A stretch of 64,000 bases of DNA from a virus (lineage: Duplodnaviria; Caudoviricetes), in the IMG/VR virus record IMGVR_UViG_3300031555_004710, positions 1-64,000 of that record. The stretch is one strand, 5' to 3'. Positions 3,052-33,510 of the stretch are shown here, piece by piece (position 1 is the first letter of the stretch; each line of letters opens with the position of its first letter). The translations under genes and the position numbers were made by a program. The notes below the pieces were generated by a model. That model made no database searches, was not told the DNA's origin, and saw only the letters and a program-made list of their open reading frames with translations.

Positions 3052-5169
3052 TTATACATTATCTCGATATTCGTTATTTACATATTTCTTTGCAATACGC
3101 ATATCTTCTTTAGTTGCTTTAAGATCATATTTTATTTTATCTCTTGCACGTTCTAATTCAGTCTTAGTTCGCATAAGAGCATATTTAGCTCTTCTATTTC
3201 CATCACCACGAGCATCTTCAATTTTTTCATCCATCATTTTTAATTCAGTTTCAATCTGAAGTAAGATTTCACTTTTCTGCTTTTTGGTTCTTCTCTTACT
3301 AATAGTATGAGATACCAAAAGATATATAAAACCAGCAGTTTTAGAATAATTAAAGATTGCTCCGGTAATTAAAATCTTTTTAAGAAGTCCTAATGGAGTA
3401 AATTTTTTACCCTCAATTATTTCTTCAGTTTTATCTTGAGAGAAAGCTCTTTTAGCAGCACTAAGCATTTTTGATAATTGAGAATCTACTTTAGCTTCGC
3501 TATCTTTATATTTTTTATAGGCATTGTAAATTTTACGTTCACCATCAGACTGAACTTTACTAGCCTTCTTATAACCTTTAGTAGATTGCTTAGCTTCTAT
3601 CTCTGGTCCATCATAATTTTTCTCATATTCAGGATCCTCTTCAATTCTAGTTGGTCCTCTATTACCATTATTAGAAGAGCTTTTTCTATCATCACGAGGT
3701 TCTTCATCTTCATACTCAGAGTCGTCTTCAGTAAATTCTTCATTCTCCTCTTCATAATCTGGTTCTTCCTCTTTCTTAATAGGTTTTTTCTTAACACGTT
3801 TCTTTTTAACCTTTGGAGGTTCTTCTTCATATTCTTCCTCATAATTAGATTCCTCATCTTCGGATTTATCATCACCAAGATTAGTTCTACTATTAACAGC
3901 ATATACTCTATTACGCCCTCTTGCTTCAGTTGCAACATCCATCTCCTGTTCAAGGGTACCAATAAGTTTTTCAGCAAGCTCTAATTCAGGATTTAAATAC
4001 TTATGAAGATATGTAGCATATACTCTATCTGGGATAGATGAATGTTTAGTATTTTCTGTGAATTCTACCCAAAGTTTAAATGCTTCATCATTATGTAGAT
4101 AACTTTTAATCCCTTCAAAATAGTCTCCTCTTAAAAATACATCTTCATAATCCCCAGATTCAGTATATGAACCAACTATACTATTGATTATAGTCTGAAC
4201 TGTTTCAGGGATTGCAAAACTACTAAAGAAAAGAGTTTTAGCATCTCTTAAAAGCATCGAAATTTCTTTCGTACTTAATTCGTTTTCAGTATAATTAAAA
4301 TGAATGGTATTTAAAAATCCTAACATGAATTGTCCAACTACTGGGTTAGCTACATTTACATATCCAGTAGAAGCTAATCTAGTTTTTAATTCATGAAAAC
4401 CCATTATAATATCATTAAAGAACATTAAATATACATCCGATGAAGTTTTATTTTTTGATACTTTACTATATCTATTTGCAAGTTCTCTCATTTTTTCATC
4501 AATTAAATTTCCCCATTCGGTAACATTTAATTGATTTAATAATGTAGAATGATCGATATTGTGACATATATTTATAAATAATGCCTGAAATGGTCTTATA
4601 ATCTCATTAATCTTATGATAGTCTTTATCCTTTGATAAATCAATTTCATATTTATTTTTAAAATATGAATCTAATTCTTCCATTGTCTTACCTTGGATTA
4701 TCAAATCTATTGATACTCTTATTTGCTCCATAAGTACAGGATTATTAATATCTTCATCGGTTCTAGCTAAATACCACTGACATAAAGTATTTATTAATAC
4801 ATCTTTCTTTTCAGAAGGTAATTTAGATATGAAGGTCTTGTCATCTGCACATATAGCAGCTACCATAAGTGAAAAATCATCAAGTTCGAAAACAAGGTTA
4901 TCGAAATTGGATACTAATTTATTACAAAAATATCTAAGCAGATTTAATGAAGATTCACAATGTTCGGATATTGTAGAAGCCCAAACTAAAGATCTTACAA
5001 ATCTACTATAAGATGTAGAAAATCCTAATGAATCAACTGCATTTTGTAAGTCTGGATATACATGATTTATAACATTTTTTCTTACACATAAATCAACTAC
5101 ATCTGCAAGTGAATCATAGTTCTCACAAGTTGTAATTCTATTAATATATTGCTCAAGAAGTTGAGCCAT
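3052..5169 (-). CDS. Large putative inner-head virion protein
   Basis: Late motif 5212-5223; internal VATE|A site followed by an acidic/basic low-complexity linker and a helical C-terminal domain. Confidence 0.5.
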   Translation of the reverse strand: MAQLLEQYINRITTCENYDSLADVVDLCVRKNVINHVYPDLQNAVDSLGFSTSYSRFVRSLVWASTISEHCESSLNLLRYFCNKLVSNFDNLVFELDDFSLMVAAICADDKTFISKLPSEKKDVLINTLCQWYLARTDEDINNPVLMEQIRVSIDLIIQGKTMEELDSYFKNKYEIDLSKDKDYHKINEIIRPFQALFINICHNIDHSTLLNQLNVTEWGNLIDEKMRELANRYSKVSKNKTSSDVYLMFFNDIIMGFHELKTRLASTGYVNVANPVVGQFMLGFLNTIHFNYTENELSTKEISMLLRDAKTLFFSSFAIPETVQTIINSIVGSYTESGDYEDVFLRGDYFEGIKSYLHNDEAFKLWVEFTENTKHSSIPDRVYATYLHKYLNPELELAEKLIGTLEQEMDVATEARGRNRVYAVNSRTNLGDDKSEDEESNYEEEYEEEPPKVKKKRVKKKPIKKEEEPDYEEENEEFTEDDSEYEDEEPRDDRKSSSNNGNRGPTRIEEDPEYEKNYDGPEIEAKQSTKGYKKASKVQSDGERKIYNAYKKYKDSEAKVDSQLSKMLSAAKRAFSQDKTEEIIEGKKFTPLGLLKKILITGAIFNYSKTAGFIYLLVSHTISKRRTKKQKSEILLQIETELKMMDEKIEDARGDGNRRAKYALMRTKTELERARDKIKYDLKATKEDMRIAKKYVNNEYRDNV

Positions 5170-32242: not shown

Positions 32243-32337
32243 AATTAAATTCTCCTTTGTATTATTATTATTTTATTAATTTGCCTATTGTATTCATAAA
32301 AATAATATATTATTTAAAACTATAAATTATACGATTT

Positions 32338-33021
32338 TTATATAGTTAAAAATGCAGCATATGTGTAAATATTACCAATATCTTCAGATTGTTTAAATTT
32401 TAAAACTAATTTATTATCTTCTTCCGATATTATCCTATATCCTACATATGAAGTTTTCTTTAAATCTCCTAAGAATGGTCTAGCTAATAAAATAGATTTG
32501 CCATTAACTGAAATTTCACATAATTTTTTATCTAACATATTTTCTATAAAGTCTTCTGATAATTTATTATATTCAGATGAACTTTCTTCACATATAAATT
32601 CGTCAATGTTAGAAGAATCCCAATCGGGAATATTGTTATATGTAGCAGATATAATATCATTAATTGCATCTGAATTATTTATTATCGGTACTTTACAAGG
32701 GTCCATATCAGGATTTTTTACAACAAGATAATTTACACCGTTATTCGTATCCCATTCAATCTCACTTTTAGTTTTTCGAAACTTTGTATTTATTTTAGAT
32801 ATTTCAGGTATTGATAAGAATGAATATAAGAAATTAGAATAATCATATTCTTTATTAAGAATCATATAACTTCTAATTCCAGTAATTAATGACTGCATCA
32901 ATATTTTATTATCTGGGAGTAGCATTATATTGGTAGCATGCTGTTTCATTAATCTACATAATGGTATTACCGTTGAATGATAGTTTGATACGATGGTTTT
33001 TGTTATATTTTTTTCAGACAT
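32338..33021 (-). CDS. Early hypothetical protein
   Basis: AGGAGG RBS before MSEKNIT; early motif 33045-33060. Confidence 0.6.
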   Translation of the reverse strand: MSEKNITKTIVSNYHSTVIPLCRLMKQHATNIMLLPDNKILMQSLITGIRSYMILNKEYDYSNFLYSFLSIPEISKINTKFRKTKSEIEWDTNNGVNYLVVKNPDMDPCKVPIINNSDAINDIISATYNNIPDWDSSNIDEFICEESSSEYNKLSEDFIENMLDKKLCEISVNGKSILLARPFLGDLKKTSYVGYRIISEEDNKLVLKFKQSEDIGNIYTYAAFLTI

Positions 33022-33093
33022 GTTTTTATCCTCCTTTTTATTATTCACAAAAATAATACATTATAATAAATAATTTTCAAATAACATCAATAT

Positions 33094-33280
33094 AATGAGG
33101 GAGAGGCTAGAATTTATCCTCCAATAAATCTTGTTAGTATACATGCTGATTTTTTACTAACACTCCTTTAAAATGTAAATTTTACCCATTTGCTCTTTTT
33201 GCACTTTTAACCACATTTAATCTCCCTCAATTATATTAAATCCCTAGTACACTCTTTGCCAAGTGTACTAGGGATATTTT
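33094..33280 (+). ncRNA. Candidate structured small RNA with anti-SD loops
   Basis: Own AACA-N6-TAA promoter (33083-33094), closing stem TGAGGGAGA/TCTCCCTCA, three internal stems, 14-bp terminator; no ORF with a usable RBS. Confidence 0.55.
33240..33275. terminator. Strong 14-bp, probably bidirectional terminator
   Basis: atccctagtacact-ctttgcca-agtgtactagggat. Confidence 0.8.
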
Positions 33281-33510
33281 TATTTATAGTTTATAATAAA
33301 ATGCAGTTCGTCATTTTCGAGAGTACATGATACATCTTGAATTGAATCTTTTTCATTAAACACTTTATCACAAAAATCCAAGAATTGATGAAAATGCTTA
33401 CATGCAATAGATTCTAATATATTTAATTGTACTCCACTTAGCTCATCGACTGCAAGATGTTTAAAGATTTCGACTCTATCCGCATTTTTGAGCTCCGAAA
33501 TATTTTCCAT
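33280..33510 (-). CDS. Small hypothetical protein
   Basis: 76 aa from MENISELK, GGAAAGGCGGTG RBS. Confidence 0.55.
   Translation of the reverse strand: MENISELKNADRVEIFKHLAVDELSGVQLNILESIACKHFHQFLDFCDKVFNEKDSIQDVSCTLENDELHFIINYK

Follow-up and report, generated by a model that had tools for sequence, protein, structure and literature searches.

A conserved small-RNA gene with a late promoter and an unpaired anti-Shine-Dalgarno core, predicted in a phage genome with AR9-type promoters

What is a transcription unit doing in a gap between two genes that are both read from the opposite strand? In the stretch of DNA analysed here (the window, namely the first 64 kb of the 236,671-bp record of an uncultivated phage with a G+C content of 29.7%), two minus-strand genes are separated by a gap of 258 nt (33022-33279), and this gap holds a plus-strand transcription unit. 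The original prediction had taken the unit for a late small RNA, possibly a repressor of translation. Judging from comparison with related loci, we consider it highly probable that the locus is a real RNA gene, and we put the probability that the RNA acts by pairing with Shine-Dalgarno sites at roughly one half. In other words, we see here a conserved and new small-RNA family, one whose functional kind is familiar and whose setting is unusual, and whose members most likely pair with Shine-Dalgarno sites.

The locus and its promoters

Near-identical DNA is carried by animal fecal and gut metagenomes, as found by a sequencing-run look-up, in which no RNA run with this DNA was listed; the contigs concerned are fragments in which the RNA region is identical, and they therefore offer no variation to exploit. 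The tail sheath of the phage is approximately 25% identical to the sheaths of AR9, PBS1, phiR1-37 and Staphylococcus jumbo phages, and the sole match of its 540-aa baseplate protein in the GenBank phage collection, at 23%, is in Listeria phage LPJP1. In the same collection, searched with DNA as well as with protein, neither the gap plus its two neighbouring genes nor the product of the 227-aa flanking gene had a match. That product is probably the DNA sliding clamp of the phage. Namely, its structural model (pLDDT 93) was matched by Foldseek to PCNA chains with a probability of 1.0, an E-value of ~2e-5 and a TM-score of ~0.45, and Pfam and PHROG held no match for it. The features of the locus are collected in Table 1.

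Table 1. Features of the gap and its two flanking genes, in window coordinates
Feature	Position	Strand	Remarks
Early gene, 227 aa, PCNA-like sliding-clamp fold	32338-33021	-	marks the RNA gene by synteny
Early promoter, ATGTATTAT-N6-G, of the clamp gene; start predicted at G33046	33046-33061	-	divergent from the RNA gene
Late promoter (non-virion RNA polymerase type), AACA-N6-TAA, predicted start A33094	33083-33095	+	AR9 consensus
Predicted small RNA, ~185-190 nt (body 33094-33231, then terminator)	33094-33283	+	fold, homologues
P1, 5' strand, TGAGGGAGA, purine-rich	33096-33104	+	9 bp with 33221-33229
CCUCC, anti-Shine-Dalgarno core	33118-33122	+	invariant, predicted unpaired
Hairpin of 8 bp (33132-33139/33155-33162), genome-specific	33132-33162	+	minimum-energy fold; not conserved
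Second perfect AACA-N6-TAA match, spacer CTCCTTT	33159-33171	+	this genome and near-identical copies only
P1, 3' strand, TCTCCCTCA, pyrimidine-rich	33221-33229	+	9 bp with 33096-33104
Terminator, 14-bp stem, 8-nt loop and T-tract	33240-33285	+	intrinsic; head-on, shared with the 76-aa gene
Gene of an acidic 76-aa protein	33280-33510	-	converges on the RNA gene; homologues of 76-79 aa (one called 93)

The clamp gene's early promoter is one of a genome-wide family, RTATATTAT-N6-G, a repeated element found ahead of genes, and this sequence agrees with the early promoter consensus of AR9 (PMC5312081). Promoters of this type at window positions 32310, 33061 and 37519 on the minus strand, as well as elsewhere, head single genes scattered within the late structural block, namely a 243-aa gene, the clamp gene and a polyphosphate kinase gene. 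On the other side of the gap, homologues of the 76-aa gene (76-79 aa) are co-located in those loci where the upstream gene had been called. A type I toxin-antitoxin antisense RNA was considered for this arrangement and rejected, as the 76-aa product is acidic, not hydrophobic, and the overlap consists of the shared terminator only.

In AR9, late promoters read AACA-N6-T[A/G], and the final base of the motif is the mapped start of the transcript (PMC5312081). The promoter in the gap consists of AACA (33083-33086), six bases and TAA (33093-33095), and because the AR9 rule sets the start at the last base of the motif, the RNA is predicted to begin at A33094. The late promoter that had been claimed for 33083-33094 is indeed present there, fits the AR9 rule and represents a motif that is near-exclusively intergenic. 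In particular, AACA-N6-TAA occurs in 55 intergenic copies versus one genic copy in this genome, as compared to 30-61 genic and 3-11 intergenic copies for control spacers of 3, 4, 8, 9 and 10 bases; spacers of 5 and 7 are likewise rarer within genes (8 and 6 copies). For 41 of the 55 intergenic copies, a gene on the same strand starts 10-150 nt downstream. Among the related loci described below, ATAACA-N6-TAA is intact in 11 of the 12 distinct homologues despite diverged flanks, the remaining one (L018) reading AACT with a spacer of seven. The position weight matrix score of the RNA-gene promoter is 10.0, below the median of 14.8 for gene-proximal late promoters.

Seen over both strands of the whole genome, AACA-N6-TAA is nearly purged from coding DNA, as if there were strong selection against spurious late promoters. 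It is because of this purge that orphan late promoters, i.e. those followed by no gene, can be taken as reliable markers of RNA genes, which makes it useful for locating further ones. The gap itself contains a second perfect match, which is absent from every relative examined; it could be the source of a shorter isoform of ~115 nt or a chance match. Its spacer is the CTCCTTT heptamer that had been put forward as a second complement of ribosome sites: the heptamer is located at 33163-33169, as had been said, but it is not conserved, and it coincides with the spacer of this genome-specific promoter match.

Conservation, the closing helix and the coding strand

The clamp protein has 32 homologues (identity 34-96%), and in the syntenic ones that bear the RNA its identity is 38-96%. 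The order of genes is conserved, namely a gp25-like gene, the gene of the ~540-aa baseplate protein, the 76-79-aa gene, the gap and the clamp gene, with gaps of ~160-355 nt according to the gene calls (in L010, ~255 nt after an over-long start was corrected). Our comparisons cover 12 distinct gaps: that of the window (equal to L005 and L006), L007, L008 (equal to L009), L010-L015, L018, L021 and L022. The homologous RNAs, 166-264 nt in length, share one layout of promoter, closing helix P1, CCUCC, C-rich interior and terminator. Scans of IMG/VR with single proteins found no relatives, and a scan with a protein alignment added only L018 and the pair L016 and L017, which are without the RNA. In this pair, the most distant of the relatives (clamp 38% identical), a small protein gene on the strand of its neighbours seemingly replaces the RNA, and the terminator hairpin is kept.

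The Rfam search that had been proposed for this RNA came back empty, as no family (6S, Y RNA, tmRNA, RsaE and all others) matches the window or ten homologous loci; on the RNA itself there are sub-threshold matches only, mostly at the terminator hairpin. In L015, an Rfam match that exceeds the gathering score (RF00028, 58.4 bits) marks a group I intron at 4066-4435 on the minus strand, in the region of the large virion-protein gene.

The 190 nt from 33096 to 33285 fold with an energy of -52.4 kcal/mol, which corresponds to a z-score of -7.7 relative to shuffled sequences. The structure that had been drawn for this RNA was a multi-way junction. Its closing stem, here called P1, is found exactly where it had been placed, 33096-33104 pairing with 33221-33229, and P1 is kept in 12 of 12 homologues by compensatory changes. 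The remaining elements of the drawing are also present at their coordinates in this genome, but the interior helices, and with them the junction, are not conserved. Namely, no interior helix common to the relatives was found among the 12 distinct homologues, and the AU-only hairpin around CCUCC, the hairpin at 33132-33162 and the AAATGT/ACATTT stem are all specific to this genome. What the interiors of the homologues contain is an excess of C over G (292 versus 175, a ratio of 1.67) and additional C/U-rich tracts.

Across the homologues P1 measures 9-25 bp, sets in at +1 to +4 and pairs with the bases directly ahead of the terminator, and its sequences differ widely from phage to phage. Standard alignment and covariance models failed on P1, and for this reason it was analysed by our own table anchored at the RNA start. 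In particular, MAFFT with RNAalifold misaligned P1 and recovered the terminator alone; covariance models of P1 only matched mostly unrelated terminators, and a clean alignment of all 12 sequences was not reached. In the start-anchored table, all 159 pairs are canonical, 12 of them being G.U, and each of positions 3-15 shows 2-6 types of pair. In a model-fitted alignment of four sequences, compensatory changes are seen in 10 of 13 pairs and 94% of the cells pair, a score attained by none of 500 shuffles, and pairing drops to 39-61% when the alignment is slid out of register. What is more, when ~300-1170 windows per locus were compared, the 3' strand of P1 came out at every locus as the top partner of the 5' end, the trivial antisense copy aside.

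The terminator stem-loop occupies 33240-33275 and is followed by ATTTTTATTT; by the T-tract rule it is called on the plus strand only. The claim that a 14-bp terminator ends the gene-free stretch is confirmed by its presence here and in the relatives, where hairpin and T-tract are kept and the stem carries compensatory changes. Structural conservation across related phages, which had been named as a test of the prediction, was in this way found both for P1 and for the terminator stem. T-tracts flank the hairpin on both sides in several relatives. Hairpin terminators are functional with the polymerases of AR9 (PMC5312081).

Which strand does this conservation belong to? Evidence for the plus strand comes, first, from the conserved promoter and from the T-tract. 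The 12 G.U pairs of P1 lie on this strand and would be C.A on the opposite one; the summed energy of P1 is -241 kcal/mol on the plus strand versus -216 kcal/mol on the minus strand, the plus strand being stabler in 9 of 12 homologues; and the C-rich interior also points to the plus strand. The fold energies of the whole body do not discriminate between the strands, the minus-strand fold being about as good overall, and this is one of the points that speak for a 3' untranslated region, a leader or a small peptide gene on the minus strand. The others are a 27-aa open reading frame at 33144-33061 and the fact that CCUCC reads GGAGG on that strand, with GGAGG-N4-8-AUG in several relatives and an AUG at a workable distance in six, as judged by eye. 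We nevertheless hold such a minus-strand element to be very improbable. Seen from the minus strand, it would fall between the terminator and the clamp gene's early promoter; since this promoter sits downstream of the element, the element is not within the leader of the clamp gene. The conserved promoter and the G.U pairs speak for the plus strand, as described above. Moreover, no open reading frame is conserved on either strand across the homologous gaps: the longest one per locus has 10-57 aa and varies in frame, length and sequence, the frame that follows the AUG has, by eye, a length of 3 aa or more, and the insertions and deletions between close homologues are not multiples of three. The claim of a gene-free stretch that is neither a minus-strand untranslated region nor a peptide gene is borne out by these results, and they support a stand-alone, plus-strand, non-coding unit under a late promoter.

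One can also argue that it is transcription itself that matters and not its product. The unit occupies exactly the space from the terminator to the clamp gene's early promoter, and by the T-tract rule this terminator is weaker on the minus strand here, so that a late promoter at this place could oppose read-through of the baseplate operon into the early clamp gene, either by transcriptional interference or by antisense pairing with the read-through RNA. However, this would leave unexplained the compensatory, start-anchored P1, the unpaired CCUCC and the C-rich interior, and in several relatives the T-tracts are found on both sides of the hairpin. We therefore regard the idea as improbable.

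There is similarly little likelihood, in our view, that the RNA is real and has a role independent of pairing with ribosome sites, be it as a structural or assembly RNA, as a stabilising element or as an RNA acting on the polymerase of the phage. The late unit does lie within a block of tail and baseplate genes, and the strand bias of P1 (127 of the 159 bases of its 5' strand are purines, facing a pyrimidine strand) exceeds what the conservation of a plain helix needs. That said, the RNA has no likeness in Rfam to 6S, Y RNA, tmRNA or any other family, and structural or catalytic RNAs do not usually have an interior that lacks a conserved fold.

The anti-Shine-Dalgarno core and its possible partners

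The motif CCUCC is present in 12 of 12 homologues, in 9 of them as ACCUCC, and the 5' end is 25-46 nt away from it, or 101 nt in L013, which is longer. Its predicted probability of being unpaired is 0.64-0.97, versus a mean of 0.36-0.53 for the whole RNA. The unpaired CCTCC that had been described at 33118-33122 has in this way turned out to be invariant and predicted unpaired throughout the family. It is, in fact, the sole primary sequence kept family-wide within the RNA: an anti-Shine-Dalgarno core, and one that is kept unpaired. CAU precedes CCUCC by 3-10 nt in eight relatives, six of which have it at 5-10 nt, and because of this the block mirrors a generic gene start of the form GGAGG, spacer, AUG. 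The 15-mer of the CCUCC block also occurs commonly at the start of genes in phages that are unrelated, and scanning IMG/VR with the pattern GGAGGYGTCAAAATG as a means of finding relatives gave only such generic gene starts in unrelated phages. A second box, AAGUCG(U/A)A, is conserved in the homologues of groups B and C; it is intergenic in 5 of its 11 occurrences, which is a mild enrichment only.

The mechanism that we propose is the following. The gene would probably be read by the late (non-virion) RNA polymerase of the phage, starting at A33094 from AACA-N6-TAA, and the transcript would probably end at the hairpin and U-tract of 33240-33285. The first bases of the RNA and those preceding the terminator would then pair as P1, tucking in the 5' end and closing off a C/U-rich, largely unstructured interior of ~115 nt, in which (A)CCUCC, the core of the anti-Shine-Dalgarno sequence of 16S rRNA, would be exposed in single-stranded form. 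This core, together with weaker C/U-rich tracts nearby, could pair with GGAGG ribosome-binding sites on mRNAs, and such pairing would reduce the initiation of translation late in infection. Pairing with GGAGG is the simplest reading for two reasons, namely that the only sequence kept family-wide is an unpaired anti-Shine-Dalgarno core, and that AAAGGAGG is the type of ribosome site used by the phage itself. The expression of the RNA, its pairing with Shine-Dalgarno sites and the translational repression by it we infer from these features.

Which messages might be the partners? The target prediction that had been suggested gave no phage target by seed pairing, by co-variation with leaders or by complementarity within the genome. 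In particular, the seed showed no pairing preference among the ribosome sites of phage genes, whether early, late or other, and the repressor aimed at early mRNAs that had been envisaged is for this reason not borne out. There was no co-variation with the leaders of the clamp, 76-aa, 540-aa and 805-aa genes, pairing energies within a locus equalling those across loci; predictions of long-window duplexes with the leader of the 76-aa gene gave loose, uninformative pairings; and stretches complementary to the RNA at other places of the phage genome reach 13 nt at most, which is the level of chance. The clamp mRNA was considered as a specific target on the strength of a 10-nt complementarity in this genome, and this idea was dropped because the relatives do not keep it. 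Taken together, no target with extended or co-varying pairing was identifiable among the phage sequences. What is more, a bare CCUCC would also be able to pair with the late ribosome sites of the phage itself, so that a selective action would need some further explanation.

It is here that another explanation has to be weighed, namely that the RNA is a decoy or sponge for a protein, for example by mimicking the 3' tail of 16S rRNA (ACCUCC). It could capture a factor of the host or the phage, a nuclease or toxin that recognises the 16S tail, or a binder of pyrimidine-rich RNA. The lack of an mRNA target and of co-variation with leaders in the phage would agree with this, as would the AAGUCG(U/A)A box, kept in groups B and C with no obvious role in pairing, and the combination of clamped ends with an unstructured interior, which would suit a stable and abundant decoy. 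In addition, five homologues read GACACCUCCGU, which is near to the 16S tail of the Bacillus type. However, the overlap with the 16S tail amounts to just 5-6 nt, and the locus offers no linked candidate for the protein partner, its neighbours being the acidic 76-aa protein and the clamp. The hallmark of the pairing small RNAs of low-GC Gram-positive bacteria is, moreover, just such an open C-rich motif with complementarity to Shine-Dalgarno sites, and on balance we consider a decoy unlikely.

Known small RNAs, the antisense starts of AR9 and further late units

The nearest functional parallels to pairing with Shine-Dalgarno sites are RoxS/RsaE and RNAIII of S. aureus, base-pairing small RNAs of low-GC Gram-positive bacteria with C-rich seeds. 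Like the RNA described here, they have an open C-rich motif complementary to GGAGG, a Rho-independent terminator and a length of 100-200 nt, and like the mechanism proposed here they act by occluding ribosome-binding sites. Unlike them, the present RNA has no Rfam match, is encoded by a lytic jumbo phage and has a promoter of the kind read by a non-canonical phage polymerase. P1 clamps its two ends, and its seed would be a bare anti-Shine-Dalgarno core and not a target-specific extension of it.

A second parallel comes from AR9, whose transcription starts were mapped by dRNA-seq (PMC5312081). Two late starts, 75478(-) and 115851(+), are labelled 'antisense' in Table S3 of that paper by Lavysh et al. 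(2017). Their tabulated values are 3757 and 278, the former being the highest among the rows considered, and the authors do not treat the two transcripts as small RNAs. In the AR9 sequence (KU878088.1), both starts are intergenic and lie behind AACA-N6-TA, and the units that they begin, 75400-75478 (-) and 115851-115940 (+), each have a single-stranded C-rich motif (UCCUCC or CCCCUC) close to the start, then a strong terminator, and no open reading frame. They share with the RNA described here the type of promoter, the orientation opposite to the flanking genes, the C-rich motif mirroring Shine-Dalgarno sites and the terminator. They differ from it in their length of ~75-90 nt, in having no P1 clamp and in their neighbourhood, and no sequence homology was seen between the two units and this RNA. 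To us, they look like unrecognised small RNAs. Since they share its layout, short late RNAs of this kind have mapped starts in a cultivated relative.

The genome studied here contains further orphan late promoters, all outside the window. One of them, at G000:C1:97475-97747 (-), heads an RNA of ~260 nt with no open reading frame and no CCUCC, in which the initial 18 nt pair with those immediately before a strong terminator, a layout like that of the P1 clamp. Three more stand before short stretches free of open reading frames and ending in terminators, at G000:C1:202860-202975 (-), 156160-156266 (-) and 68275-68580 (+); among the RNAs of these three, two would begin with AAGUCG(U/A)A and one ends in ACUCCUUUU.

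On this basis, one may tentatively propose something more general, namely that AR9-like jumbo phages carry abundant late small RNAs, synthesised by the polymerase of the phage itself, which all display an anti-Shine-Dalgarno motif and together re-allocate translation late in infection. We regard this joint claim as possible, and as rather doubtful at present. Such RNAs would mask the ribosome sites of chosen host or early messages, or mimic the 16S tail; the locus described here would be a clamped, larger member of the set, which would also take in the other orphan late units of this genome and, in AR9, the late antisense start that is strongest.

In the literature searched, no small RNAs of AR9-like jumbo phages are described, and the characterised small RNAs of strictly lytic phages are few in general. 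What is new here is a conserved RNA gene which has the promoter of a non-canonical phage polymerase and displays a bare anti-Shine-Dalgarno core. The 'antisense' starts of AR9, mapped and yet unexplained, would gain a testable meaning, AR9 being open to both cultivation and engineering. Finally, if the proposal is true, control of translation at the level of RNA would join the known controls of expression that these phages exert at the level of proteins.
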